NCBI GenBank assembly: GCA_948629335.1
Contig: CAPHZB010000002.1
Location: forward strand, 1-57,828
Length of the DNA stretch: 57,828 nt
Source of the DNA: an uncultured Bacilli bacterium
GTDB taxonomy: Bacteria > Bacillota_I > Bacilli_A > RF39 > UBA660
Direction of reading: 5' to 3'
Position numbers and translations under genes: made by a program
Part shown: in pieces, positions 3,136-43,224 of the stretch
Position numbering within the stretch: the stretch's first letter is position 1
How the letters are laid out: each line of letters opens with the position of its first letter
The notes under the pieces: generated by a model
The model's input: the letters and a program-made list of their open reading frames with translations, nothing else
Database searches by the model: none
Told to the model about the DNA's origin: nothing

Positions 3136-3986
3136 GTGACACGTTTGAATATAGAAAATATTGAGAGATTATTAAAACAAATAGATGAAAAGGTATATAC
3201 TTGTAAATCTTGTGATAAATTAGTAGACAAATTTCCTAATGATTCAACAGTGTTTCTTGGAAAAGACAACGATATAGTTTTAGTTGGAGAAGCACCTGCA
3301 AATAATGGTTGGAGAAAAAGTCATAAACTATGGTGCGATATGAATGGGAAGGTATTACCTAGTGGAGTTGTATTACAAAAACTATTGGATATAATTGATA
3401 GGAATATTTTTGAAACTACTTTTTTAGAGTCCGTTAAATGTTATCCACTTGAAAGGAAAAATTTAAAAACTTGTTCTAATAATTGTAAGAATATAATAGA
3501 CTTGTTCGGCAAGCTTAGGTCAAATTTAATCAGTAAATACAACATATTATTCACAACTAAGATAAGTATTACTTTCAATGATTTTTGCATATTTTAGGAT
3601 AACATTTTTAACTATTATAATTATTACACTTTATATTGTAAGGATAATGCTATTTACGTGGATTTTCTGCCATTCAAATTATTCTTACATAGGTATGCTT
3701 ATTATCCTTTTTCTTCTTTTAATTCAAAGGAATAGCTTGCCGAACAGGTCTAATGTTAGAACAATTAAAAATTTTAAATCCAAAATTAATCATTACCTTA
3801 GGTGAATTTCCAACTAGAAATTTACTCAATTTTAAATTTGGTAAATTTGCGGATGTAGTAGGAAATATATATGAAATTAATGGATATAAGATATTACCTA
3901 TATATCATCCTAGCCCAATTTCACCAAAAAGCTATAAAGGGAATGTTCCAATTTTTCAAAAGTTAAAAGAAATTTATAATTTGTGA
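3136..3986 (+). pseudogene. Uracil-DNA glycosylase superfamily gene (family 4/5-like, with Fe-S cysteines) interrupted by a 252-bp insertion
   Basis: The N-terminal ORF 3136-3597 carries CKSC, GEAPANNG, VKCYP and CSNNC. The C-terminal ORF 3753-3986 carries LNPKLIITLG and YHPSPISP. The two halves are in different frames. Deleting 3499-3752 joins ...CKNII to MLEQLKILNPK... in frame, giving 198 aa. An alternative start is TTG 3145, after GAGGTGA. Confidence 0.75.
3499..3750. mobile_element. MITE-like non-autonomous element with 17-bp terminal inverted repeats and a TA target duplication
   Basis: The left end GACTTGTTCGGCAAGCT (3499-3515) matches the reverse complement of the right end AGCTTGCCGAACAGGTC (3734-3750) at 16 of 17 positions. 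TA flanks both ends (3497-3498 and 3751-3752). The interior is AT-rich with no credible ORF. Confidence 0.6.
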
Positions 3987-4003
3987 AAGGAGAATATTGT
4001 ACT

Positions 4004-4159
4004 ATGGAAGAAAGAATAAATTTAATGATTAGAAGTAGCACGGAAGAGTTTTTAATATTTAAAATTCAAGAAGGCGATAAAGAAATTCAGGTTAGATATG
4101 ATAAAGGGATGATAGAAAAGTTGTTTTTGTATAAATCAATAAAAAATATTGCCTGGTAG
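4004..4159 (+). pseudogene. Truncated RhuM-family-like N-terminal fragment (51 codons)
   Basis: RBS AAAGGAGAA, then MEERINLMIRSSTEEFLIFKIQEGDKEIQVRYDKGMIEKLF.... This resembles the EFLIYQTEDG..I.VR....W....QMAELF N-terminus I recall for RhuM-like proteins. It stops after 51 aa and runs into the tRNA promoter. Confidence 0.35.
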
Positions 4160-4189
4160 GAAATATTCATGTTATACTATTAGTAGCTT

Positions 4190-4274
4190 GTGAGAATGGC
4201 GGAATGGTAGACGCGCTACTTTGAGGGGGTAGTGAATTTTATTCGTGAGAGTTCAAATCTCTTTTCTCACACCA
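4190..4274 (+). tRNA. tRNA-Leu (anticodon GAG), class II with a long variable arm and encoded CCA
   Basis: Acceptor stem is GTGAGAA/TTCTCAC. The D region TGGCGGAATGGTAGACGCG is typical of tRNA-Leu. The anticodon stem is CTACT/GGTAG with loop TTGAGGG. A long variable arm precedes the T arm GAGAG-TTCAAAT-CTCTT, then ACCA. Confidence 0.9.
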
Positions 4275-4320
4275 AAGAAGAATCTGCTAGAACTTTTATA
4301 GTTAGAGCTTAATGATAAAT

Positions 4321-4349
4321 ATCAATTCTAGAAATGGAATTGATTTTTT
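4321..4349 (+). terminator. Intrinsic terminator after tRNA-Leu
   Basis: ATCAATTC (4321-4328) pairs with GAATTGAT (4337-4344), followed by TTTTT. Confidence 0.7.
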
Positions 4350-4410
4350 GTTGTGCAAAGATAAGTGAGGAGATTCTTTAATGGCTAATATTATCAAATA
4401 AGGAATTGAA

Positions 4411-4933
4411 ATGGAAATGGCTTTAAAAAACAAGATTGAATTTATATGTAGTTTTTGTAATACTACACCAATAATTCATAATGGAAGTATTAGAACAATA
4501 GAACATACAAATATCTCTTATGTGGGGCCTCATAGCATTATTATTAAAGGTATTACTTTTTTGGTATTTAACTATTGCTGAATACATTGATAAAAAAGGT
4601 TATGCTTTAATTGGTAATGTTGTTACGAAATTAAGATTTAGTGAGTATTTGACTTTTGAAAAGAATAATAAACATTACTGGTTGGAACATTTATGGAATA
4701 TATGTAAGGGAATCCATAAATACAACACAAAAGAAGTTCTATTATTGGATGTAAGAAAAAAATTTATTCAATATGAATTAAACAATAAGTATGAGAAACA
4801 AAACCTTGTTTTATATAATACCCAAAACAATACCAAAAGCCAAAATTCCATACCACAGTGCAGGAGTTCTATAGTCATTGTGAAAATGGAAAATTTATTG
4901 ATTTTACTACATTTTGATAAAATGTATCTTTGA
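4411..4933 (+). pseudogene. Frameshifted hypothetical gene (56-codon ORF 4411-4581 plus the overlapping ORF ending at 4933)
   Basis: Two overlapping ORFs in adjacent frames meet at a T6 homopolymer (about 4555-4560). Removing one T would fuse them. The N-terminus has a CxxC...H segment (FICSFCNTTPIIHNGS). No family is recognised. Confidence 0.3.
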
Positions 4934-10828: not shown

Positions 10829-10904
10829 TGCCCCATAGCCAAGCGGTAAGGCATCGGACTCTGACTCCGACATTTCGTTCGTTCGAATCGAACTGGGGCA
10901 GCCA
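10829..10904 (+). tRNA. tRNA-Gln (anticodon CUG)
   Basis: The acceptor stem TGCCCCA/TGGGGCA has the U1-A72 pair typical of tRNA-Gln. The D region is TAGCCAAGCGGTAAGGC. The anticodon stem is TCGGA/TCCGA with loop CTCTGAC. The T arm is GTTCG-TTCGAAT-CGAAC, then GCCA. By my count the variable loop is 6 nt, one longer than usual. Confidence 0.85.
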
Positions 10905-10914
10905 AAATTATAAA

Positions 10915-11122
10915 AAAGCGATGAAGAAGAAGAGTAAAATGTGTATTTTTAAAGAGACCTTATGGTTGGTGAGAATAAGGAAAAGAAACATTTGAAGAAA
11001 CTTTTGAGCTGAATATAAAATTACGTATTCTCGCGTTAAGAGAAAAGCGCATAAGTTATTATGAATTAAGGTGGTACCGCGGGAAAACTCGTCCTTAAAA
11101 TTCATAATAACTTTTTATTTTA
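10915..11122 (+). promoter_or_regulatory. T-box riboswitch leader of gltX
   Basis: The conserved T-box sequence AAGGTGGTACCGCG lies at 11068-11081. The terminator helix is TTATTATGAATTAAGG (11057-11071) with CCTTAAAATTCATAATAA (11093-11110), followed by a T-run. AGAGA and GGTGAGA elements lie in the stem I region. Candidate specifier GAA followed by A lies at 10997-11000. Confidence 0.85.
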
Positions 11123-11150: not shown

Positions 11151-12803
11151 ATGACAAATAAGGATTTAGCTGATGTAATATTTCCAAATATTACAAAGAC
11201 AATTGCCGATTATGAAAAGATGTACCCAGAAAGAAAAATAGAAGAGGGAGCAAGTGTAACTCGTTTTGCACCCTCTCCAACAGGATTTATGCATTTAGGT
11301 GGATTCTTTCAAGCAATCATTGATAAATTAATTGCACATAGTACAGATGGTGTCTTTTTTGTGAGAAATGAGGATACAGATCAAAAAAGAGAGGTAGAAG
11401 GGGCTACAGAATTGATTATGAATACACTTAGCCACTATGATCTTTTACCAGATGAGTATGAATTTAAAGGAAAGATTGTAGGAGAGTATGGACCTTATAT
11501 TCAAAGTGAAAGAAAAGAGATTTATCAAACATTTATTAAACACTTAATTGAAATTGGTAGAGCTTATCCTTGTTTCGCAACAAAGGAAGAACTAGAGGAA
11601 TTAAGAAATGCTCAAGAAAAAATAAAGATGAGAACAGGATATTATGGAAGATATGCAAGGGATAGAAACTTATCCGTAGAAGAAGCAATTAAGCGAATTC
11701 AAAGTGGAGAAAAATATGTCATTCGTTTTAAATCCATGGGAGATTTTGAGAAAAAGTTTAAGTTTATGGATGAAGTGCGAGGACTTCTTTACTTACCTGA
11801 AAATGACGAAGATTTTGTCATTATGAAAAGTGAGGGTGGTCTTCCAACCTACCATTTCGCTCATCTTGTAGATGATGTTTTAATGCATACTACACATGTA
11901 GTCCGTGGAGAAGAGTGGTTAAGCAGTGTTCCAAAACATGTAGAACTATTTGAAACATTTGGCTACCCACTTCCAAAGTATGTACATACTCCTTTAATTG
12001 TAAAAAAAGAAGGAACTAGTGTAAGAAAGTTGTCAAAACGAAAAGACCCAGAAGCCACAATGCGTTATTACGAGGAACAAGGATATCCTAAAACAGCTGT
12101 AATTGAATATTTAATGACAATTATCAATTCCAATTATGAAGAGTGGCATACCGAAAATCCAGAGAAGGCATATTTAGATTTCACATTTAATCCTAAAAAA
12201 ATGGCTGCATCAGGTGGTGCTTTATTTGATATGGAAAAGTTAAACAATATCTCTAAAAATTGTATTTCTAAAATGACAAAAGAAGAACTTTTAGAGGAAT
12301 CTTATGCATGGGCGAGTAAATATAATCCTACATTAAAAGAAATTATTGATAGAGATAAGAATTACTATATGTCTATTTTGAATATTGAAAGAGAAAGTGC
12401 GAAACCAAGAAAAGACATTACTACCTATCAGGATATCCTTGCTAATATCTGGTACATGTATGATGACTTATTTGAAAAAGAGGATACATACGAATTTATG
12501 AAAGTTACAGATAAAGAAGAAATAAACAAAATTACGAAAACTTATATGGACAAATATTATTCTGTAGAAGACGATAAGGATACATGGTTTACAAAAGTAA
12601 AATCTTTGTGTGATGAATTAGGTTATGCTTCCAATATGAAAGAGTATAAAATAAATCCAGAAGCATACAAAGGAAGTGTCACAGATATATCTACTGTACT
12701 TCGTGTTTCCCTAACGAAAAAAGCACAAACACCAGATTTGTACGAGATTATGCAAATTCTAGGTCGAGATAAAATGATAGAAAGGTTTGAAAAGTTGTCA
12801 TGA
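11151..12803 (+). CDS. gltX: Glutamate--tRNA ligase
   Basis: HIGH motif in PSPTGFMHLGG and KMSKS motif as KLSKRK. Class I GluRS-like throughout. Strong RBS GAGGAGG. Confidence 0.9.
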   Translation: MTNKDLADVIFPNITKTIADYEKMYPERKIEEGASVTRFAPSPTGFMHLGGFFQAIIDKLIAHSTDGVFFVRNEDTDQKREVEGATELIMNTLSHYDLLPDEYEFKGKIVGEYGPYIQSERKEIYQTFIKHLIEIGRAYPCFATKEELEELRNAQEKIKMRTGYYGRYARDRNLSVEEAIKRIQSGEKYVIRFKSMGDFEKKFKFMDEVRGLLYLPENDEDFVIMKSEGGLPTYHFAHLVDDVLMHTTHVVRGEEWLSSVPKHVELFETFGYPLPKYVHTPLIVKKEGTSVRKLSKRKDPEATMRYYEEQGYPKTAVIEYLMTIINSNYEEWHTENPEKAYLDFTFNPKKMAASGGALFDMEKLNNISKNCISKMTKEELLEESYAWASKYNPTLKEIIDRDKNYYMSILNIERESAKPRKDITTYQDILANIWYMYDDLFEKEDTYEFMKVTDKEEINKITKTYMDKYYSVEDDKDTWFTKVKSLCDELGYASNMKEYKINPEAYKGSVTDISTVLRVSLTKKAQTPDLYEIMQILGRDKMIERFEKLS

Positions 12804-19465: not shown

Positions 19466-20139
19466 TGCATCTCAATCGGCGATTATTATTACTTACATCT
19501 CTTGTACCAAAGGATGTTGTTGTTTATGATATAGGTTGTGATCATGCGCTTTTAGATATATTTTTAACCCTTTATAATAACAATACATGTTATGCTATTG
19601 ATCAAAAAGAAAGCGCATTAAAAATGGCTAAAAAGAATATTGCTTTATACCACTTGGAGAAAAAGATCACAGTTTTATGTCAAGATGGATTTTTCAATCA
19701 AGAAATAAAAGAGAACAGTGTTGCAGTACTTGCAGGAATGGGGACAAGGACGATTTTAGATATTTTAAAAGGTAGAGAAGATGCTCCATTTAAAAAAATC
19801 ATTATTCAAACCAACAACGATTATGAAATTCTACGTGAATCTATGATGAAAAAAGGATACAAAATTACTTCTGAACATGTCCTTTTGGATAAAAAAATTT
19901 GGTATGTGATTATGACTTTTGAAAAAGGAAAGGCTTCTTATTCTACTTATGAATTGAAATTTGGGCCTCTTTTAAAAAAGGAAAATAGCATAAAGAGAAA
20001 TTTATATTATACGTATTTAATCGAAAAAAGAGAAGCTATTTTAAAAAAATTGCCAAGAGGACATCTTGGCAAAAAACTAGAAATAAAAAAAGAAATTGTA
20101 TGGCTTAAGCGAACAAGCAAGGTTAAAGAAAGAAAGTAG
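19465..20139 (+). CDS. trmK: tRNA (adenine22-N1)-methyltransferase TrmK-like SAM-dependent methyltransferase
   Basis: DIGCDHALL SAM-binding motif. Its position after dnaG-sigA matches Bacillus yqfN/trmK. Confidence 0.75.
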   Translation: MHLNRRLLLLTSLVPKDVVVYDIGCDHALLDIFLTLYNNNTCYAIDQKESALKMAKKNIALYHLEKKITVLCQDGFFNQEIKENSVAVLAGMGTRTILDILKGREDAPFKKIIIQTNNDYEILRESMMKKGYKITSEHVLLDKKIWYVIMTFEKGKASYSTYELKFGPLLKKENSIKRNLYYTYLIEKREAILKKLPRGHLGKKLEIKKEIVWLKRTSKVKERK

Positions 20140-20467
20140 GACCACTTTGCTTTTTAGGAACCACTTGTTGTTCTTCCCTTAAAGAATTCGTAGGCATGGA
20201 GGTAGAAGGCATAGTACTTTTAGGCGTACTAGGGGCTTCTGCCTTTTTAAATTCATTCATAACACGAAACATCGTTTTCGCATTTCTCATCATTGGTCCA
20301 GCCTGTCTTACAAGGGGAATTGCTTGATTGACGACATTTAATGTTTTACTTGTACCTGCTAAAATAGAAGAAAGATTTAAGTTTCCAAATAAACTTTTGA
20401 AAATACCTGCTTTAGGTGCTGCTGAAACGGTCGGGTAGGCCATATAATATGGGTTAAAATAATTCAT
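20123..20467 (-). CDS. YqfQ/VrrA-like small protein
   Basis: Low-complexity 114-aa protein ending in GPTFFL, in the sigA-trmK neighbourhood as in Bacillus. The family assignment is from memory. Confidence 0.45.
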   Translation of the reverse strand: MNYFNPYYMAYPTVSAAPKAGIFKSLFGNLNLSSILAGTSKTLNVVNQAIPLVRQAGPMMRNAKTMFRVMNEFKKAEAPSTPKSTMPSTSMPTNSLREEQQVVPKKQSGPTFFL

Positions 20468-25887: not shown

Positions 25888-27105
25888 TTAATTATTCTGC
25901 AATTGTTCTATTTTATCGTATATCTTTTTTAAACTTTCCTCATATTTAGAAGTTGTCTTTGGCTTATAGTACTTTCTATGTTTTAAATTTTCAGGCAAAT
26001 ATTCTTGCTTTACAAAGCCATTTGGATAATTATGTGGGTACAAATAAGTTGTGGAATTTGTTTTAATATGATTTGGAACATTTCCTGTATTTCCTTTATG
26101 AATATCAGCAAGCGCTAAATCAAGGGCGAGATGGGCACTATTTGATTTAGGCGAAAGGGCCATTTCTATCACCATAGTTCCTAGAGGAATTCTTGCTTCA
26201 GGAAGACCCAAACGTTCACAAGCATGAATACAAGCATCTACTTTTGGACCAATGGATGGGTTAGCAAGACCAATATCTTCATAAGCAATGACAGTCATCC
26301 TTCGATAAATACTATCTAAATCTTCTGCTTCAATGAGGCGCGCTAAATAATGAAGAGAAGCATTTACGTCACTTCCACGAATGGATTTCTGGAAAGCAGA
26401 TAACACATCATAATGACCATCTTCGTCTTTATCGTGAAAAAAAACAGGTTTCGCATTGATATTTTTTATGACTTCTTTAGTAATATGAAAATCATTGGTT
26501 GCATAATACGATACCTCTAATAAATTGTAAGCACTTCGAACATCTCCACTAGACAGAGTACTAATCATTTCTAATGCATCCTCATCTATCTTAATATCCT
26601 TTAATATACCAGATTGTATTGCCTTTTTTAAGGCTTCTAAAACATCATCGCCTGATAACTCATGTAATTCGAATATTTGGCAACGACTTCGAATGGCAGG
26701 ATTAATTTTATGATAGGGGTTTGATGTAGTCATTCCAATTAAAGTAATTAATCCATTTTCTAAATAAGGAAGAAGTAAATCTTGTTTATCTTTATTTAAT
26801 CTGTGAATTTCATCCATAATCACAACCAGACCATGATTCATCTTTGCTTCCTCGATAACAATATCAAAATCCTTTTTAGAGTGAATGACTGCATTTAACA
26901 TGCGATGTTTTAAGTGTAATTCATTTACAATAGCGCTTGCTATCGTCGTTTTGCCAATGCCTGGTTTTCCATATAAAATCATAGAAAAAAGATGTTTATT
27001 TTTCACCAAATTATAGAGAACTTTTCCTTCTCCAATTAAATGTTTCTGCCCAATAATTTCTTCTATACATGTTGGTCTTAATTTAACAGCTAACGGCTCA
27101 TTCAT
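25888..27105 (-). CDS. rarA: Replication-associated recombination protein A (MgsA/RarA AAA+ ATPase)
   Basis: GKPGIGKTT Walker A and VIMDEIHRLNK Walker B, plus a conserved MgsA C-terminal region (HYDVLSAFQKSIRGSD..., AYEDIGLANP). I prefer the start at ATG 27105 (MNEPLAVKLRP) after GAGGAAG. The ORF-track extension to 27321 lacks an RBS. Confidence 0.9.
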   Translation of the reverse strand: MNEPLAVKLRPTCIEEIIGQKHLIGEGKVLYNLVKNKHLFSMILYGKPGIGKTTIASAIVNELHLKHRMLNAVIHSKKDFDIVIEEAKMNHGLVVIMDEIHRLNKDKQDLLLPYLENGLITLIGMTTSNPYHKINPAIRSRCQIFELHELSGDDVLEALKKAIQSGILKDIKIDEDALEMISTLSSGDVRSAYNLLEVSYYATNDFHITKEVIKNINAKPVFFHDKDEDGHYDVLSAFQKSIRGSDVNASLHYLARLIEAEDLDSIYRRMTVIAYEDIGLANPSIGPKVDACIHACERLGLPEARIPLGTMVIEMALSPKSNSAHLALDLALADIHKGNTGNVPNHIKTNSTTYLYPHNYPNGFVKQEYLPENLKHRKYYKPKTTSKYEESLKKIYDKIEQLQNN

Positions 27106-27162
27106 ATCATCACTTCCTCGTATTATTTTAACATGTTTTTCTAAATTATGATAGTTATTAAT

Positions 27163-27191
27163 TTGACAAGAATTTAAAGTGAGTTTATAAT
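27163..27191 (+). promoter_or_regulatory. Consensus sigma-A promoter
   Basis: TTGACA (27163-27168), a 17-nt spacer, then TATAAT (27186-27191). Confidence 0.7.
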
Positions 27192-27210
27192 AGCAAAACA
27201 AGTGAAAGGG

Positions 27211-28047
27211 ATGAAACTTTTTATGGAAAAACAAATTAGTAAGGAAATATTTATTCCTTTTGGCCTTGAAATTGAAATGGAAGGAATTCCATTTGAAGAA
27301 GGAGAACGTGTTATTTGTCATAAAGTAGATGAAAATTGGATAATAGGAACAGATTTAAGTTTAACCGATGAAGGAATTGAATTATCTTCTCCTGTCTTAT
27401 CCAATGAAATAGAAACATTTAAGAAATTAAAGAAACTAGCAAAAACACTCGAATTTTTAAATCCTACCTTTGAACATGCCAGTTTTCAAATTAATTTAGA
27501 TGCTTATACTTTTTCGAAGGAAGATTTTATCAATTTACTTAAAATGTTTTCTATATACGAAAATATTATTTATCGCTTTTCTACAGGAGAAGAGGAACAT
27601 ATAAGAGAATGTGCTGGCGAATTTGCAAGCCCTGTAGCACAACGTTTTTATGATAAATATCATGGAACTGCAAAAAAAGAGATGAGTTATCAAAGACTTA
27701 TTAATAATGAAACTATGGCGCTTTCTTTAAAAAGAAAATTGAAAAAGAAGGAAAGTCCTATTGCAATGATAGAATTCAGGACCCCGAATGGAACTTGTAA
27801 TTACGATTTGTGGTTCAATTATATTACCTTTTTTTCTGCTTTTCTAACTTACATAAAAAGTGAAGTCTATGATAAAGAAAAAATGGATTATTTATTTGAA
27901 CATGAACCATTTTTAGGTTGTATAGGAGAGTTAGAAGCAATTGATGAGAAAAAAGCTTTACAACTTGCAGACTTAATATTTACAAATGAAGAGGATAAAA
28001 GTGCCTTTTATAAACAATATATTTATAAAAGAAAAGTATATAAATAA
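27211..28047 (+). CDS. Amidoligase (glutamine synthetase-like, Amidoligase_2) family protein, tentative
   Basis: FGLEIEMEG...GTDLSL...GIELSSPVL resembles the conserved N-terminal blocks of the amidoligase family as I recall them. The start is uncertain (27211 or 27223). Confidence 0.5.
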   Translation: MKLFMEKQISKEIFIPFGLEIEMEGIPFEEGERVICHKVDENWIIGTDLSLTDEGIELSSPVLSNEIETFKKLKKLAKTLEFLNPTFEHASFQINLDAYTFSKEDFINLLKMFSIYENIIYRFSTGEEEHIRECAGEFASPVAQRFYDKYHGTAKKEMSYQRLINNETMALSLKRKLKKKESPIAMIEFRTPNGTCNYDLWFNYITFFSAFLTYIKSEVYDKEKMDYLFEHEPFLGCIGELEAIDEKKALQLADLIFTNEEDKSAFYKQYIYKRKVYK

Positions 28048-28079: not shown

Positions 28080-28108
28080 TTGACAAAAGTATATAATTTT
28101 GATACAAT
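28080..28108 (+). promoter_or_regulatory. Strong sigma-A promoter with extended -10, driving the large ncRNA
   Basis: TTGACA (28080-28085), a 17-nt spacer, then TGaTACAAT (28100-28108). Confidence 0.7.
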
Positions 28109-28114
28109 TTAATC

Positions 28115-28730
28115 CAGTGATTGGCGCATTATTCTAGTCACGAAGTTTATTATGAAGGCAGGCCTAAAAATCTGTCAAAGAGCATACCTGTGAAACTTTT
28201 GGTGCTTGCTTTATACGCCCAGTGTGGGGTGAGTGCTGGAAGGTAGAGTATTGGGAAACCTATAATGGCATATAGGGGAACCCAGTGTTCGTGGAGACCC
28301 ATACTTGTTATTAGCCTATACATGAATCCATTGACGGACTAATGACGACTTGGGATTAAACCTACTATGTGGTTAGCGCTACGAGTAGTGTAGCTTGTCT
28401 TGCGTGAATGTCTTGGGATAATTGATCTAAGTAAAAATAACTGGCCAATTATTTTTACCTATTGCAATTTGAAATCACATTTGCAAAAAAGAATTAGTAA
28501 TAAATGGAGTGTTTGAGGAAATCTCCTAGAGTGTAAATAAAATGGGATTGCGGTGTATACTAAGTGGCGATCAAGTTATATATGTGGTGACACTATATTG
28601 GAATCTTTAAAGGGGAACCGCACGTGTGGTAACGCACTGTAGATTCTAGAGAAATTCTACTTGACCTAAGATACAAAGTTTACTGTTTTATAGCCAGACA
28701 CATCTAATTTGGGAATATTTCCCTTTTTTT
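28115..28730 (+). ncRNA. Large structured noncoding RNA candidate of about 615 nt. The best guess is OLE-class RNA; it could also be another or a new large RNA.
   Basis: The supplied track shows no ORF of 60 aa or more in any frame across 28048-28665. G+C is clearly raised: I count 32/60 for 28201-28260 and 25-26/60 for the next two 60-nt lines. Local helices include CCTATA/TATAGG (28259-28276), GCTAC/GTAGC (28378-28394) and GTAGA.TTC/GAA..TCTAC (28639-28660). The unit ends at the hairpin GGGAA-TAT-TTCCC plus T7 (28711-28730). A small DUF21-like membrane protein follows directly. Confidence 0.6.
28711..28730 (+). terminator. Short intrinsic terminator or partial terminator at the end of the ncRNA
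   Basis: GGGAA / TTCCC stem with a 3-nt loop, then TTTTTTT. The stem is weak, so read-through into the next gene is plausible. Confidence 0.45.
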
Positions 28731-28744
28731 GTTTGAGGTGCATA

Positions 28745-29350
28745 ATGAAAAAAATAGAAAAAATACGTTTAAAAGAGGAATTTACAAATCTAAAAGTACT
28801 AACAGAGAGAAAAGAGAAGAAAAACAAAAGGATTGTAGACATAAAGTGGATTTTAAAAATAACATTGCTTGCCTTTATTTTATCAATTGGTTTCTCCTTT
28901 TTATGTGAAATGGCATTACCAAAAGTGGATCTTTTAATAGAAATTTTACTTATCTTTTTATTTATTTTATTAGGAGTCTTGTTTGATATGGTAGGTGTAT
29001 CAGTAACCAGTGCAGATATAGAACCTTTTAATTCTATGAGTTCTAGAAAAGTAAGAGGAGCTAAAACGGCAGTAAGATTGATACAAAAGGCGGACAAAGT
29101 ATCTTCGTTTTGTAACGATGTCATAGGAGATATTTGTGGTATTGTTTCAGGTTCTGCTGGAGCAATCGTATCTGTTAGCTTGTCAAACGATTTTTCTGTC
29201 TCGCCACTTATTACAACATTAATCACCACTGCTTGTATTGCTTCTTTAACCATAGGAGGGAAGGCTTTAGGAAAAAGCTATGCTGTGAATAAGAATAATA
29301 TCATCTTGTACAAATTCGCTAAATTCATATCTCGTTTTATAGGTGAATAA
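28745..29350 (+). CDS. Small DUF21 (CNNM/CorB transmembrane domain)-like membrane protein; candidate OapA-type OLE-associated protein
   Basis: RBS GAGGTG, then ATG 28745. The product is 201 aa with a Lys/Arg-rich N-terminal tail (KKIEKIRLKEEF...RKEKKNKR) followed by TM segments. DMVGVSVTSADIEPFNSMSSRKVRGAKTAVRLIQKADKVSSFCNDVIGDICGIVSG resembles the DUF21 pattern. No CBS or CorC domains follow. Confidence 0.55.
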   Translation: MKKIEKIRLKEEFTNLKVLTERKEKKNKRIVDIKWILKITLLAFILSIGFSFLCEMALPKVDLLIEILLIFLFILLGVLFDMVGVSVTSADIEPFNSMSSRKVRGAKTAVRLIQKADKVSSFCNDVIGDICGIVSGSAGAIVSVSLSNDFSVSPLITTLITTACIASLTIGGKALGKSYAVNKNNIILYKFAKFISRFIGE

Positions 29351-29413
29351 CTTCTTACTTGAAAAAAAACGAATAGTTTGGTATGATAGTAACAGAATAG
29401 AAGAGGTGTGTCT

Positions 29414-30925
29414 ATGAATGAAGAATCTAAAAATATACAGGAAGAACAATCAGAAGAAATTCCAGAGGAATTATATGCCCCACTTGGAGATGTTTCCTTT
29501 CAAAAACCGAAAAAAGAAATTATTCCTGAATATGTATCTTATAAGGATGTAGATTTGGAGTATTCTAAGAAACCATTTAATGCTAAGAAATTAGTTTACC
29601 GCATTGTTACACTTCTTATTATAGCTCTATTTGTTGTAGCAAGTGTTTTGTATGTAAAAAGTAAGAAAAATGTATATAGAAGTTGGTTAAATGGAGAAAC
29701 AAAAAATATAACAGCTAAATTAAATACAGTTTTGGAAAATAAATTCATCCATTTAAGTAAAAGTTCACCTTTTGTAACTTCTTTTCTTGTAAACTTTGAA
29801 ACAGATTACGATACAACTTTAATTACTAAAGAAGAAAAAGAACTATTAGATACAGTAAAGAATATACATATGTCTTATACTTTAGGAATGGATTTAAAAA
29901 ACAAAGAACTTACACATGCATTAAAATCAACATATAGTAATGAAGATTTACTTACCATTTATGGAAATGGGAATCAAGATGTATTTAGTCTTTTAATACG
30001 TGAAGTAACAGGTAGATATATGGAAGTTCCAAATCATGCTTCGTTTTTACTTCAGGATACAAAAACGACAAAAAAAGATATAGAAACTTTTCGAAAATAT
30101 ATGGTTCAATTTCTTTTAAATGAGATTGCAGAAGATGATTTAAATGAAGAAAAAAAAGAGTTAGAACTTGATGGAAAAATAGAAAATGTAAGAGATATTT
30201 CTTTTCATCTTACACAAAATAGAATACAGAATATTCTTATAAAGTGGAGTGATACATTTAAAAATAATAAACTATTTAAAGAAAAAATCACTTCTTGTTT
30301 TAATATTAGTGAAACAGATTTACACAATTATTTAGAAAAAATAAAAAATATGCCTGTTCAAGAGATAGAAATACATGTTTATGCCAAAGGTCTTATAAAT
30401 AAAGTAGTTGGTTATGACATCAAAGTAGAGACGTCTTCTATCTATGAATTTTCAAATAGAAAAGGAAAAAGGAAACAATATAAATTAGTCAAAAATGGAG
30501 AAAACATCTTTGATATAGTAAAAAAAGAAGAAAACATAACAGGGAAAATAGGAAGCAATTCTGTAGAAATTACAAAGACAGATGAAAATGCATACACATA
30601 CTCTATACAAAGAGATGAGGAATATTATAAAGGGACAATCGTAAAAAAAGATACAGAATTAAAATTATCAAAACAAGGGAATATTGATTTTTTAGTTCAT
30701 CATTTAGATAAAGAAGAGCGTGAGATTTCACATAGTAAATTATCCTTTACGTATAACACAAAAACAGTGGATTTTCTTTCAAAATATGATGATAATCAAC
30801 TTATATCTTATGAGGCTTTAAAAGAAGAAGAAAAAATAGAAGTTAAAAAGAGGATTAAGCAGAAAAAGACTGTGCGACAAGTTTTGGATAATGTGAAAAA
30901 ATATAGAAAGAAAATGTGGAAATAA
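29414..30925 (+). CDS. Hypothetical single-pass membrane protein (about 504 aa)
   Basis: RBS AGAGGTG. One TM segment (LVYRIVTLLIIALFVVASVLYV) and a large extracytoplasmic domain. No motif is recognised. Confidence 0.6.
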   Translation: MNEESKNIQEEQSEEIPEELYAPLGDVSFQKPKKEIIPEYVSYKDVDLEYSKKPFNAKKLVYRIVTLLIIALFVVASVLYVKSKKNVYRSWLNGETKNITAKLNTVLENKFIHLSKSSPFVTSFLVNFETDYDTTLITKEEKELLDTVKNIHMSYTLGMDLKNKELTHALKSTYSNEDLLTIYGNGNQDVFSLLIREVTGRYMEVPNHASFLLQDTKTTKKDIETFRKYMVQFLLNEIAEDDLNEEKKELELDGKIENVRDISFHLTQNRIQNILIKWSDTFKNNKLFKEKITSCFNISETDLHNYLEKIKNMPVQEIEIHVYAKGLINKVVGYDIKVETSSIYEFSNRKGKRKQYKLVKNGENIFDIVKKEENITGKIGSNSVEITKTDENAYTYSIQRDEEYYKGTIVKKDTELKLSKQGNIDFLVHHLDKEEREISHSKLSFTYNTKTVDFLSKYDDNQLISYEALKEEEKIEVKKRIKQKKTVRQVLDNVKKYRKKMWK

Positions 30926-37446: not shown

Positions 37447-37482
37447 GTGCGTATAACTGAAAATAAAAAGTCTGAAATTGGT

Positions 37483-37511
37483 TTGACGAATAGGAAGTTT
37501 TGTGCTAAAAT
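37483..37511 (+). promoter_or_regulatory. Promoter of the candidate sRNA
   Basis: TTGACG (37483-37488), a 17-nt spacer, then TGcTAAAAT (37503-37511). Confidence 0.6.
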
Positions 37512-37517
37512 GTATGT

Positions 37518-37631
37518 AGTGAAAGAAATTTCATATAATAAAAAAGAGATACATTTGATATTCGCATGTCAGATGTATACTCTATTCAATAGTGTAACAC
37601 CGTTTCAAAAGAAGATTCGGTGTTTTCGTTT
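37518..37631 (+). ncRNA. Candidate small RNA of about 115 nt, unknown family
   Basis: Bounded by the promoter above and the terminator AACACCG (37596-37602) / CGGTGTT (37618-37624) followed by TTCGTTT. An internal hairpin is GAGATACAT...ATGTATACTC. There is no RBS for the overlapping ORF-track entry 37447-37638. Confidence 0.45.
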
Positions 37632-37647
37632 AAGTTAGTCCTTATTT

Positions 37648-37737
37648 TTAAGAACTAAGATAGTATAAAATACTATAGTTATAAAGATAACTACTAATTC
37701 CAAAAGAATTAATCCTTTCTATAATTTTTTGAATCAT
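37648..37737 (-). CDS. Candidate 29-aa peptide (MIQKIIERINSFGISSYLYNYSILYYLSS)
   Basis: RBS GAGGTGA lies 5 nt before the ATG at 37737. An upstream TTGCTT-17-TACAAT promoter is present on the minus strand (about 37800-37830). The ORF is convergent with the sRNA and shares its terminator region. Confidence 0.35.
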   Translation of the reverse strand: MIQKIIERINSFGISSYLYNYSILYYLSS

Positions 37738-37924
37738 AGAAATCACCTCTATTCTAGTACCAAAAGATACAAAAACAGAGTAAAACACCTAACTATCAAA
37801 TTATCTCTAGATTAATTGTATAACATTTATAAAAAATAAGCAATAAAATTTATGAATGAATGTTCGTAATTGGTAAAATAATAGAGTTTAAAACAAAAGA
37901 AATCCATTTTTTATCATTTCAATC

Positions 37925-38103
37925 CAGGATAAACGCATGAGTTTTTCTTGTAAATAAAGGCTTTGTAGACAAGATGTTATCAAAAACAATTAAATAATCA
38001 TAATAAATATTAAGTTTAATTGAAATTTGACTGATGATAATTAAATATTTAATCCCTTATTTTATTGAGAATTTAGTAATTGTAATCTCATGCGTTTATC
38101 TTG
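37925..38103. mobile_element. 179-bp MITE-like element with 17-bp terminal inverted repeats and a 10-bp target duplication
   Basis: CAGGATAAACGCATGAG (37925-37941) matches the reverse complement of CTCATGCGTTTATCTTG (38087-38103) at 16 of 17 positions. Identical CATTTCAATC flanks both ends (37915-37924 and 38104-38113). Confidence 0.55.
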
Positions 38104-38316
38104 CATTTCAATCTGTTTTTTATATTCTTTTTCCAATTTTTCTGTTATAATTATCCTAAAACTTCTTTATTGTCTATTTTTTCTTTTAACAACAGTTTAC
38201 GAAGTTGCTTTATTTTTGTCAAATTGTAACTTTTATTTTTGGAAGACACCTATAGAATAAAGCGAGGATTGAAGGAAGAACAAAAACAGTTCACTAAAAA
38301 ATAAGGGTTTAATCCC

Positions 38317-39281: not shown

Positions 39282-39545
39282 TTACTTCATTTCGTTTACT
39301 TTTTTTGTAAGTCTTGACTTATGACGTGCTACAAAATTACTTGTAACCACTCCCTTTGATGCAGCCTTATCTAATCTATTGTAAACAATTTGTAGGTTTT
39401 CTTTTGCTTTCTCAGCATCTTTTGAAGCAATTGCTTTTTCTAAGTTTTTCATAGCCGTTTTTAAACTTGCTTTATACACATTATTGACTTTATTTTTCTT
39501 TTCTTGTACAATTACAGCTTTTTTGGCATTCTTAATATTTGGCAT
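39282..39545 (-). CDS. rpsT: 30S ribosomal protein S20
   Basis: MPNIKNAKKA... is a basic 87-aa protein with the classical S20 N-terminus. Confidence 0.95.
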   Translation of the reverse strand: MPNIKNAKKAVIVQEKKNKVNNVYKASLKTAMKNLEKAIASKDAEKAKENLQIVYNRLDKAASKGVVTSNFVARHKSRLTKKVNEMK

Positions 39546-39635
39546 ATTCTCACCTCCATGTCACTTGCTTTTTATATTTTAGCAAACTTTTTTAGAAAAT
39601 GCAAATAAAACTGCACTTTCTGGTAAAAAATAGTA

Positions 39636-40649
39636 ATGGTGATTATGTTGAGAGAGATTGACTTAAAGAATTTTAAAATTAGGACAGATTTAATTACAGA
39701 ATCAGTTACGGATTTGAAACGGGAAGAAGTTTTAAAAGGCGTATTTGTCAGTAAGCTTTGTTTAGATGAAACTAGGGCAAAGGAAGGATTAAAAAAACCA
39801 GGAAACTATACCACAATCGAATTTACTGATATAACCGATATTGATAATTTTTTAGGGGTAAAGCAGGTACTGAAATCTTGTTTAAAACCATTCATAAAGG
39901 GTGAAAAAACATTACTAATAGGACTTGGAAATCAAAAATCAACACCAGATATTCTTGGTCCTAAGACCATTGATGAAATTGTTGTTACCAGTTATTTGGA
40001 GAATCTTGGTCCGTTAGAAGAAGGATTCTCTAGTACGGCTATCTTTAAACCAGGAGTCACTGGAGAAACAGGATTAGAAACGAGTAGTGTCCTAAAAAGT
40101 ATTGTTACAAGCTTTAAGCCCAAACAAGTCATTGTTATTGATGCTTTAGCTAGTAAATCGTTAGATCGTGTCTGTAAGACCATTCAAATTACAGATACAG
40201 GGATTGAACCAGGTAGTGGAGTTGGGAATAAACGAACAGAAATTAGTGCAGATACACTAGGTGTACCCGTTTTAGCTATTGGAATTCCTACGGTTGTTGA
40301 TGCTGTTAGTGTTGTAAGTGACACAATTACCTATTTAATGAAGCAATACTCTTTTCAAAAAAAATTTTTACATACAAAAAAGAGTAGGCTCATTCCAACA
40401 AGTAAAATTAACTATTTAAATGAAGAGATTGAAATTGATAAGGAAGATAAAGAAAAGGTTCTTGGTATGTTAGGATTATTAGAAGAGGAAGAGGTAAAAG
40501 AACTTTTCTATGAAGTTTTGACACCAATCGGTTATAATTTAATGGTAACCCCTAAAGAAATTGATTTTACCGTTCAAAAATTAGCCCATCTTCTAGCAAC
40601 TGCCTTAAACGAAATCTTACATCCCAAGTTGGAAGAAAGTAAGGAATAA
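39636..40649 (+). CDS. gpr: Germination protease (spore endopeptidase GPR)
   Basis: IRTDLITES near the N-terminus, LIGLGN and VIVIDALAS blocks, and a position next to rpsT as in other sporeformers. The real start is possibly ATG 39645. Confidence 0.85.
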   Translation: MVIMLREIDLKNFKIRTDLITESVTDLKREEVLKGVFVSKLCLDETRAKEGLKKPGNYTTIEFTDITDIDNFLGVKQVLKSCLKPFIKGEKTLLIGLGNQKSTPDILGPKTIDEIVVTSYLENLGPLEEGFSSTAIFKPGVTGETGLETSSVLKSIVTSFKPKQVIVIDALASKSLDRVCKTIQITDTGIEPGSGVGNKRTEISADTLGVPVLAIGIPTVVDAVSVVSDTITYLMKQYSFQKKFLHTKKSRLIPTSKINYLNEEIEIDKEDKEKVLGMLGLLEEEEVKELFYEVLTPIGYNLMVTPKEIDFTVQKLAHLLATALNEILHPKLEESKE

Positions 40650-42634: not shown

Positions 42635-43126
42635 TTAGTCAGTGAACTTTCGAATTTGCTTATAGGCTTCCTTTAATTTTTCTTCAATTCCCTTAGGACA
42701 ATATAAGGGAGAAGTACTAGGTAAAGAGATGGCTTTGATATGGGTAGAAGGATAGCTATATTTTTGATAAAGTTGATAAGCTTTTTTCCCTGTAGTAAAG
42801 ATAACTTTAATCTGTGTATCCTTTAAAAGGGGAAGCAAATCATTTGGAATGGGATTTTTGATGGATTGATCACTGGAATTCACAATATCACAGCTTTTTA
42901 GAACATCAAAAAGGGCAATATTGTGTCTTTTTAGAAAAGCAATTTTTTCATTCTTCGTTGGCCCAATTTCCTCTTCATAGACTTGTTCTAATGTTTTCCA
43001 AAAACGATTTTTCGGGTGAGCATAATAGAATCCAAGCTTTCTTGATGTAACTGAAGGCATACTTCCTAGAATTAATACCTTCGCATTTTTTGTATAAATG
43101 GGTTTTAATGAGTGATTTACTTGCAT
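42635..43126 (-). CDS. UDG-superfamily DNA glycosylase (deoxyinosine / mismatch-specific glycosylase-like)
   Basis: VLILGSMPS...YYAHPKNRFW motif near the N-terminus, about 163 aa. ATG 43126 follows AAGGAGA. Confidence 0.7.
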   Translation of the reverse strand: MQVNHSLKPIYTKNAKVLILGSMPSVTSRKLGFYYAHPKNRFWKTLEQVYEEEIGPTKNEKIAFLKRHNIALFDVLKSCDIVNSSDQSIKNPIPNDLLPLLKDTQIKVIFTTGKKAYQLYQKYSYPSTHIKAISLPSTSPLYCPKGIEEKLKEAYKQIRKFTD

Positions 43127-43224
43127 AATCAATTCTCCTTTTTTTAAAAGTATTATAAATTAGTATTAAATCTCTTGTCAATTGCATAAAAGAAGAGTAT
43201 AGTATGTTTAAAAGAGGTGAAGGT

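Follow-up and report, generated by a model that had tools for sequence, protein, structure and literature searches.

Within the window analysed here, the whole 57,828-nt stretch of DNA, a G+C-rich and ORF-free region of about 610 nt is followed on the same strand by the gene of a small membrane protein. This raises the question of whether the locus encodes a known large structured RNA together with its protein partner, or an RNA that has escaped description so far. The original prediction, made from the letters of the sequence, took a pair of OLE RNA and OapA as its primary reading, and the covariance-model search of the RNA, the analysis of the protein and the comparison of homologous regions all speak in favour of it. 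We are highly confident that positions 28105-28713 (+) and 28745-29350 form a bona fide ole-oapA locus, which encodes OLE RNA and its partner OapA. The G+C-rich stretch is an ordinary full-length copy of a described RNA class in an uncultured low-GC gut bacterium.

What this analysis observed is that the RNA and the protein belong to their families, that the RNA is conserved and covaries, that the two genes occur as a pair, and that promoter and T-run are conserved. The OLE class, its OapA partner, the pairing of RNA and OapA, the relationship of OapA to CNNM and the occurrence of OLE in reduced gut Bacillota are already published. Since class, partner, pairing and occurrence in reduced gut Bacillota had all been reported before, the novelty of the locus is low. 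OLE is among the most enigmatic large bacterial RNAs; the present copy adds little to what has been learned of it, and a standard Rfam scan suffices to detect it.

Family match and structural conservation of the RNA

As found by cmscan, positions 28105..28713 on the forward strand match the Rfam OLE model (RF01071) with all the major stems of the family. The score of 387.3 bits (E 2.6e-110) compares with a gathering score of 50, and the alignment spans model positions 1-616 of 616 without truncation. At the gathering score neither ROOL nor GOLLD, HEARO or raiA, the other families named in the original prediction, matched anywhere in the window; the whole-window Rfam scan returned OLE, one T-box and two tRNAs. 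In the window copy 141 of the 153 model base pairs are canonical, and 206 of 249 strongly conserved (upper-case) consensus positions (83%) are identical, the 43 that deviate showing mostly G-to-A or C-to-U changes. The conserved OLE motifs UAUUCUAGUCA, CCUAAAAAUC, GCCCAG, AAUGGCAU, GUGGAGACC and GUGUAGC are present, and so are UGGCCA, CUCCUAGA, ACUAAGUGG, UUUAAAGGG and GACCUAAG.

The G+C content of the RNA is 38.6%, against 29.5% for the whole window. It is about the most G+C-rich 609-nt stretch in the 57.8 kb, as 0.01% of stretches of that length reach its value or a higher one, every one of them overlapping OLE. The G+C counts first reported for it proved to be exact, with 32 in the 60 nt from 28201, 25 in those from 28261 and 26 in those from 28321. 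The absence of open reading frames was likewise borne out, with no ORF of at least 60 aa in 28105-28713 and the longest ones reaching 57, 41 and 38 aa. Very A/U-rich but structurally complete, this OLE may be of modest help to comparative and structural work.

Related metagenome genomes carry the same RNA, with strong covariation, and it is not replaced there by a coding gene. In 76 of 81 related loci an oapA homolog is preceded, on the same strand, by an OLE homolog; all 17 loci that were run against Rfam scored 323-543 bits for OLE, and an intact protein-coding gene in place of OLE was found in none of the 76. The nearest genomes are gut metagenome bins labelled as uncultured Bacilli, Firmicutes, Tenericutes or Mollicutes. 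To assess covariation, the Rfam structure was projected onto a structure-blind MAFFT alignment of 74 homologous RNAs. In this alignment 86.6% of cells were paired, compared with 38-46% when the partners were slid, a percentage which, like those given below for single helices, is inflated because the structure was projected through the window's own row. Changes on both sides were noticed in 119 of 153 pairs as against 60-74 with slid partners, and none of 500 shuffles reached the observed values.

Individual stems could be followed through the same alignment. The P2 hairpin with its conserved CCUAAAAA loop (28157..28176, +, by model alignment; helix 1) had 93.5% of cells paired and double changes in five of its six pairs, and one of the two OapA-binding palindromes has been mapped to P2 or nearby (PMC12265935). 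The long P3 stem with a GCCCA loop (28196..28242, +; helix 2), whose counterpart has been proposed in cryo-EM papers to span the membrane (PMC12265935), comprises 20 pairs with 91% of cells paired and double changes in 11 pairs. The long P9 arm with the conserved UGGCCA loop (28397..28493, +; helices 8-12) is A/U-rich in this genome; its outer helices are well supported, and its apical part was poorly aligned by MAFFT (40-65% of cells paired). In P13 (28578..28598, +; helix 17) all eight pairs covary, with 93.8% of cells paired, and the model-projected structure shows a GUGA tetraloop at 28587-28590 and a single bulged U at 28583. A GNRA tetraloop and a one-nucleotide bulge in P13 are the determinants of OapB binding (PMC7936274), and this accessory site is intact in the model-projected structure of the window OLE.

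Of three local helices proposed earlier, the one at 28259-28276 corresponds to a consensus OLE hairpin; those at 28378-28394 and 28639-28660 were not accepted as parts of the consensus, being alternative local pairings in competition with helices that covariation supports. The P7-type stem (28298..28354, +; helix 5) contains a 13-nt insertion relative to the Rfam model in the cmscan alignment, and at its apex stands a module of the form CCUAUAC-hairpin-UGACGGA (28316-28339, +) which 28 of the 74 related OLE RNAs share and whose small internal hairpin covaries. We considered whether this module is a k-turn and rejected this on inspection, the G-A pair required for such a fold being missing from the 5′ strand (UAUAC).

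Compared with the OLE of Halalkalibacterium halodurans, the window copy lacks two elements, the P6 anti-Shine-Dalgarno mimic CCUCC, in place of which the 3′ strand (28281-28291) reads ACCCAGUGUUC, and the small hairpin at model positions 425-436, which is absent from the cmscan alignment. The conserved GGG/CCC pairs of P6 remain, and the mimic positions are lower case, that is variable, in the family consensus. In H. halodurans it is bS21 that uses the CCUCC mimic.

An alternative is that the RNA is no longer functional and represents an OLE remnant decaying in a reduced genome. In reduced gut lineages, defective ole genes are known as rare cases and shortened variants also occur (PMC11332333), and the 43 off-consensus positions together with 12 non-canonical pairs among 153 would be in line with erosion. 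Such erosion should be hard to reconcile with a molecule in which all the major stems and the OapB-type P13 tetraloop and bulge are retained, which follows a near-consensus promoter and precedes an intact oapA with invariant motif residues; moreover, the same RNA is retained in the three closest genomes, where it scores 500-550 nhmmer bits and shows compensatory changes, and defective copies have been reported only where the genome has no oapA. We therefore regard decay as very unlikely and read the RNA as a complete OLE. The published 'variant 1' (TANB77) and 'variant 2' (RF39) OLE RNAs likewise come from uncultured low-GC gut genomes (PMC11332333); the window copy differs from them in being of the full-length type, with P7, P8 and a long P9 present and the P13 OapB site intact. 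P7 is frequently short in the 74 relatives and missing from one RNA (L058), and none lacks both P7 and P8. The OLE RNAs of Clostridium botulinum and C. acetobutylicum, seen as dimers by cryo-EM, belong to the same family model, and by sequence the dimer-forming domain-1 stems P3-P9 are present here too. The clostridial relatives among our loci (L072 and L079) score higher than the window copy, at 480-543 bits compared with 387.3, and differ from it by extra insertions in P7 and P8 and by possession of the hairpin at model positions 425-436.

The partner protein OapA

The gene oapA (28745..29350, +), the commonest neighbour of OLE RNAs, starts 31 nt past the end of the OLE match and encodes a 201-aa four-helix membrane protein, OLE-associated protein A. 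Its ribosome-binding site GAGGT (28735-28739) and ATG (28745) lie where they had been predicted, and the description of the product held as well: the N-terminal tail is basic, with 13 K/R in the first 34 residues, and the only domain signal is a sub-threshold match to CNNM/DUF21 (Pfam PF01595, 24.1 bits at a cutoff of 28.4), Pfam giving no further domain. Hydropathy peaks mark transmembrane-like segments at residues 36-54, 61-79, 126-144 and 152-170; prolines, of which CNNM domains have a conserved one that OapA proteins lack, occur here at residues 59, 94 and 154. A DxxxD motif, DVIGD, occupies residues 125-129, and both D125 and D129 are invariant in 58 homologs. The loop between the second and third segments (residues 95-122) carries seven K/R against one D/E, so that loop and N-terminal tail, judged by their residues, together make up a basic cluster of the kind that defines a putative RNA-binding surface. 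The protein is 43% identical (E 6e-54) to one encoded beside the 543-bit OLE of a Clostridia genome (L079).

An AlphaFold model of OapA (pLDDT 86.7) has long helices that agree with the hydropathy segments. When this model was compared by Foldseek, the top four matches were structures of the archaeal MtCorB (7M1T/7M1U), with probability 1.00 over about 140 aligned residues, and the other matches had E above 1.7. Sequence identity to MtCorB is 16-18%, and searching the PDB by sequence with OapA found nothing at E up to 1; CorB was found by fold comparison only. Thus the signature of OapA in sequence and Pfam analysis and a CorB/CNNM-like fold in the AlphaFold/Foldseek comparison were both recovered, and the original prediction was right about the relationship of OapA to the CNNM/DUF21 domain, which has been published (PMC11332333). 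OapA shares its transmembrane fold with the MpfA/CorB/CNNM transporters, which combine a DUF21 domain (PF01595) with a CBS pair and CorC. OapA differs from these in having four membrane helices instead of three, in its DxxxD motif and in lacking CBS and CorC. With 201 aa, a CNNM score below the cutoff, no Pfam match to CBS or CorC and no NCBIfam match, the protein does not have the transporter architecture; the DxxxD motif is what sets OapA apart from CNNM domains, which lack it (PMC11332333). The NCBIfam scan found no family for OapA or for either of its two unknown neighbours, and a lookup of the exact protein returned a single 4.3-kb contig from run ERR3199547.

In H. halodurans and Clostridium species, OapA is described as a four-helix membrane protein that is dimeric and a distant relative of the CNNM/CorB Mg2+-transporter domain. 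Its binding to OLE is cooperative and keeps the RNA at the membrane, or possibly across it; the resulting OLE RNP aids tolerance of cold, short-chain alcohols, excess Mg2+ and poor carbon sources (PMC11332333, PMC12265935, PMC7936274, PMC12054373).

Promoter, putative terminator and predicted expression of the pair

A scan placed a sigma-70-type promoter at 28080..28108 (+), consisting of a -35 TTGACA (28080-28085), a 17-nt spacer and an extended -10 TGaTACAAT (TG at 28100-28101, TACAAT at 28103-28108). With 11 of 12 matches plus the extended -10 TG, it is the near-consensus element that had been claimed. Of 72 related loci, 59 have a promoter at the corresponding position that reaches 10 or more of the 12 matches with a spacer of 16-18 nt. 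Transcription would be predicted from the sequence to start at about 28115, and the first conserved OLE nucleotides follow within a few nt. Between ole and oapA the scan also recovered the weak intrinsic-terminator-like element of the original prediction (28711..28730, +), in which a 5-bp hairpin, GGGAA-UAU-UUCCC (28711-28723), is followed by T7 (28724-28730). The hairpin, at -5.2 kcal/mol (z-score -1.2), is not significant alone, as 28 of 200 shuffles fold equally well. In 43 of 57 related short-spacer loci OLE and oapA are separated by a T-run of at least five, often preceded by a small G+C hairpin, and no promoter-like site was found by the scan in the 31-nt spacer.

We infer from these elements the following course of expression. 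The strong housekeeping-type promoter at 28080-28108 would drive a non-coding OLE RNA of about 610 nt, whose end would fall at 28713 or just after, where the weak hairpin and T-run may stop most transcripts; the fraction that reads through would serve as the oapA message (28745-29350), and such leaky termination would give more RNA than protein. The conserved promoter and the weak terminator or T-run before oapA suggest that ole-oapA is a self-contained unit with oapA expressed by read-through. The comparison of the 70-odd loci is of modest value in this respect, as it suggests that in this lineage ole is served by a strong promoter of its own, with a T-run ahead of oapA.

The same arrangement might be read as a cis-acting, riboswitch-like 5′ leader whose sole role is to control oapA by way of the terminator at 28711-28730, for oapA directly follows the RNA on the same strand, has no promoter of its own and is set off from the RNA by a terminator-like element. 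We consider this extremely unlikely. At 600 nt and about 19 helices the RNA is far larger than any known leader, and published OLE is a stable, abundant, membrane-localised RNP component (PMC12265935). Furthermore, unrelated genes intervene between ole and oapA in about eight related loci, and in four loci no OLE is found within 4 kb of oapA, which fits a trans-acting RNA. In H. halodurans an ole deletion has been complemented in trans.

In this low-GC gut Bacilli lineage the pair may have taken a particular form, namely that of an autonomous, relocatable two-gene cassette with its own consensus promoter, an internal leaky terminator that sets the ratio of RNA to protein, and flanks that vary between genera, unlike the classical ole, which is embedded in an operon. 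To this we join the proposal that the lineage-restricted P7 apex (CCUAUAC-hairpin-UGAYGGA in the 28 of 74 relatives) could dock an undescribed partner. The combined proposal is tentative, and we hold it to be possible with the balance leaning against it.

Gene neighbourhood and comparison with H. halodurans

The ole-oapA pair sits between an amidoligase-family gene and a gene without assigned function beside holA, in surroundings that also include type IV pilus or competence genes and rarA. Within about 15 kb there are neither isoprenoid nor xse genes, in agreement with the predicted non-canonical neighbourhood outside the ispA-dxs context. Around the pair, rarA, the amidoligase gene, a 505-aa gene and holA are kept only in the three closest genomes; no functional link to the flanking genes is proposed. 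A published anticorrelation with MpfA would predict few or no MpfA genes in this genome, and the intact P13 site would predict that OapB is encoded. Pfam scans of 42 of the ORFs in the 58-kb window, a small part of the genome, did not find genes for OapB (YbzG), OapC (YbxF) or bS21 (rpsU), nor any L7Ae-type or KOW/S1-type small protein; bS20 was the only ribosomal protein among them.

An undescribed giant structured RNA with a superficial resemblance to OLE, the alternative offered in the original prediction, might account for the unusual genomic context, the unusually A/U-rich composition and the 13-nt insertion in the P7 arm, and has practically no probability left once the 616-position OLE model is matched end to end at 337 bits over threshold, 83% of strongly conserved positions agree with the OLE consensus and the oapA partner gene is present, the full-length match excluding it for all practical purposes.

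Among known systems, the OLE-OapA pair of the window can be compared with that of H. halodurans, the experimental model. Both RNAs belong to the class of about 610 nt and share its helices, conserved junction sequences and a P13 with GUGA tetraloop and single bulged U; in both, oapA follows immediately downstream and its product has four transmembrane segments, DxxxD and a putative basic face. The ole of H. halodurans belongs to a long polycistronic cluster that also includes isoprenoid genes, DNA-repair genes and others (PMC12265935), whereas here it has its own near-consensus promoter. OLE occurs in Bacillota, typically in anaerobes or extremophiles. The two hosts differ as well, H. halodurans being an alkaliphile and the present one a gut bacterium of 29.5% G+C. 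The synteny of the window is Bacillus-like (dnaG-sigA-trmK; holA-rpsT-gpr), and a germination protease is present.

Full-length OLE RNA upstream of oapA

All 4227 Rfam families were run over the whole window with their gathering cutoffs. The OLE model (RF01071) matched 28105-28713 on the forward strand with 387.3 bits, where 50 is the gathering score (E 2.6e-110), and the match covered model positions 1-616 of 616 without truncation. OLE was the sole large-RNA match in the window, and the same scan gave no match to ROOL, GOLLD, HEARO or raiA, the other families named in the original prediction. That prediction had read 28080-29350 as either an OLE/OapA pair or an undescribed large RNA; the sequence is as it described, and the observation is real and its OLE/OapA reading is correct. 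No open reading frame of 60 aa or more lies within 28105-28713, the longest being 57, 41 and 38 aa, and the G+C counts reported for successive 60-nt lines (32, 25 and 26) are exact. The OLE stretch has a G+C content of 38.6% vs 29.5% for the window, a value matched or exceeded by only 0.01% of 609-nt windows, all of which overlap the stretch itself; the intergenic gap holding it, 697 nt, is the third largest in the window.

On projecting the structure line of the model onto the window sequence, both partners were present for 153 of the 159 pairs, and 141 of these 153 were canonical. The RNA is identical to the consensus at 206 of 249 strongly conserved positions, and the 43 differences are mostly G-to-A or C-to-U, as is expected of a very A/T-rich genome. 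Three local helices had been proposed from the sequence, of which 28259-28276 is indeed a consensus hairpin, while 28378-28394 and 28639-28660 compete with covarying consensus helices and were not upheld. The small hairpin at model positions 425-436 is absent, the P7 arm carries a 13-nt insertion relative to the family consensus, and P6 lacks the CCUCC anti-Shine-Dalgarno mimic which H. halodurans uses for bS21 (PMC12054373). The P13 hairpin is retained, with its GUGA tetraloop (28587-28590) and single bulged U (28583), both of which are determinants of OapB binding (PMC7936274). The window OLE is of the full-length type, unlike the shorter variants described in TANB77 and RF39. The standard Rfam model detects it effortlessly and the finding is already known: earlier publications describe the OLE class, OapA as its partner, the adjacency of the two, the relation of OapA to CNNM and the presence of OLE in reduced gut Bacillota, with 2822 Bacillota hits in a GTDB-wide survey (PMC11332333).

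Related loci and compensatory changes

An identical OapA protein is present on one other short contig (run ERR3199547). A search with this protein that covered a single genome from each GTDB species yielded 80 loci; gut metagenome bins with the labels uncultured Bacilli, Firmicutes, Tenericutes or Mollicutes account for nearly all of them. With the window's RNA as query, nhmmer placed an OLE homolog ahead of the oapA homolog, in the same orientation, at 76 of 81 loci, and all 17 loci passed to Rfam scored 323-543 bits for OLE. We then counted pairs in a structure-blind MAFFT alignment of 74 full OLE copies carrying the projected Rfam pairs. Paired cells amounted to 86.6%, compared with 38-46% when the 3' partners were slid by 1-3 columns, although the percentage is favoured by projecting the structure from the window's own row. 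Changes on both sides were seen in 119 of 153 pairs vs 60-74 when slid, and none of 500 shuffles reached the observed values; the counts of compensatory changes are far beyond the controls despite the window-row structure.

In four loci (L005, L027, L042 and L055) with OapA homologs 54-61% identical to the window's and oapA at about 4001-4600, OLE was not found within 4 kb on either side (nhmmer --max; Rfam, E up to 0.01). OLE and OapA almost always co-occur according to published work, and the OLE of these loci may be located elsewhere in the genome. About eight loci (L020, L057, L036, L048, L052, L061, L029 and L078) have a gene inserted between ole and oapA. In L020 (3374-3952), for example, it encodes a 192-aa charged protein, and the L048, L052 and L061 spacers show a similar N-terminal sequence; the product is a multi-pass membrane protein of 330 aa in L057 (2970-3962) and a protein of 419 aa in L036 (2478-3737). 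Since the inserted genes are unlike between loci, no common third partner is evident. We also noticed a module at the P7 apex (28316-28339), CCUAUAC-[2-4 bp hairpin]-UGAYGGA, whose hairpin stem covaries. It occurs in 28 of the 74 related RNAs, one Oscillospiraceae copy among them, at positions which the Rfam consensus marks as variable (lower case), and it does not fit a k-turn.

The OapA protein

The oapA gene occupies 28745-29350 on the forward strand, with GAGGT at 28735-28739, ATG at 28745 and 201 codons, in agreement with the original description. Its product has no NCBIfam match, and its only Pfam match is CNNM (DUF21), below threshold (24.1 bits vs a cutoff of 28.4, residues 68-198). 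Hydropathy gave four membrane-spanning segments (36-54, 61-79, 126-144 and 152-170), the second and third being joined by a basic loop; the basic N-terminal tail noted earlier was confirmed. Residues 125-129 form a DVIGD motif, in which D125 and D129 are invariant among 58 homologs. Four helices, DxxxD and weak CNNM homology without CBS/CorC define OapA, whose best structural match is archaeal CorB, 7M1U (Fernando and Breaker, PMC11332333). Our AlphaFold model, built on a 58-sequence alignment (mean pLDDT 86.7), had MtCorB 7M1T/7M1U as its four best PDB matches (probability 1.00, about 140 aligned residues), all remaining hits having E >1.7. Furthermore, the window's OapA shares 43% identity (E 6e-54) with a protein encoded beside a 543-bit OLE in a Clostridia genome, and more than 5500 homologs were found in a metagenome protein collection. 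The sub-threshold CNNM match, the four segments, DxxxD, the CorB fold and the clostridial identity together establish that this protein is OapA and not an MpfA/CorB-type transporter.

In published systems OLE is bound cooperatively by OapA, which recruits it to the membrane. OLE forms dimers whose P3 stems may span the bilayer, and H. halodurans without the OLE complex tolerates cold, ethanol, Mg2+ and poor carbon sources less well (PMC12265935, PMC11332333, PMC10898510). By analogy, the OLE-OapA pair of the window would have a similar membrane role.

Proposed expression unit, neighbourhood and other features

The predicted promoter at 28080-28108 (+), TTGACA-17-TACAAT, matches at 11 of 12 positions, has TG two bases before the -10 hexamer, and was the best site of the region in a promoter scan. 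In 59 of 72 loci, promoters with at least 10/12 matches and 16-18 nt spacers precede the first conserved OLE nucleotides by the same distance, usually with the extended -10 G. The predicted weak terminator was recovered by a terminator scan as the hairpin GGGAA-UAU-UUCCC (28711-28723) followed by seven T (-5.2 kcal/mol, z-score -1.2). The OLE-to-oapA spacer of related loci has a median of 27 nt; at least five T follow the RNA in 43 of 57 short-spacer loci, often preceded by a small G+C hairpin. In the window's own RNA-to-oapA spacer the promoter scan gave no promoter-like site. Whereas the ole cluster of H. halodurans is read as one long transcript (PMC12265935), we infer from the sequence a self-contained unit here, comprising promoter, OLE, leaky terminator and oapA. 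An antisense promoter-like site inside the OLE gene (28149-28178, minus strand; TTGACA-18-CATAAT, 11/12) is probably a chance match; its -35 overlaps the P2 3' strand, which reads differently in most relatives.

As predicted, the neighbourhood is non-canonical: the classical cluster's isoprenoid and exonuclease VII genes are not near ole-oapA. Nearby are dnaG, sigA, trmK and genes for a type II/IV secretion F-type protein, a prepilin peptidase and an aldo-keto reductase; rarA and an Amidoligase_2 gene lie upstream, and a gene for a 505-aa protein without family match, holA and a T2SSE ATPase gene downstream, with rpsT and gpr further on. These flanking genes are common only to the three closest genomes (77-85% OapA identity), ole-oapA alone being conserved in all other loci. 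The 505-aa protein (29408-30925), directly downstream of oapA, has no Pfam or NCBIfam match and is hydrophobic around residues 60-85; its conservation in this place is recognisable in the closest genomes alone (L002-L004, 48-64% identity), apart from faint matches in L006 and L009. The RarA/MgsA-type ATPase frame (25888-27321, minus strand) overlaps the amidoligase-family gene start by 120 nt, and no domain matches its first ~70 residues; translation probably begins instead at an internal methionine near 27105. Bacillus-like synteny of rpsT, gpr (germination protease, Peptidase_A25, E 1e-91) and a YqfQ-like gene (39282-40649 and 20123-20467) suggests that the host forms spores, which agrees with the correlation published for ole and sporulation genes.

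The largest gene-poor gap of the window (37447-38316, 870 nt) holds only 63-aa and 56-aa frames, and no Rfam family matches it at gathering score. Two short overlapping frames lie at 3578-3986 (75 and 77 aa), and the second of them matches a portion of the uracil-DNA glycosylase family, perhaps as a copy that is frameshifted or decayed; this family also has an intact gene of 165 aa at 42635-43132 (minus strand). A tRNA-Gln(CUG) gene (10829-10904) is followed after about 8 nt by a T-box leader (10912-11099, 133.5 bits), which precedes a class-I Glu/Gln-type aminoacyl-tRNA synthetase gene (11151-12803); it is unusual for a tRNA to stand directly before the T-box that senses tRNA charging.
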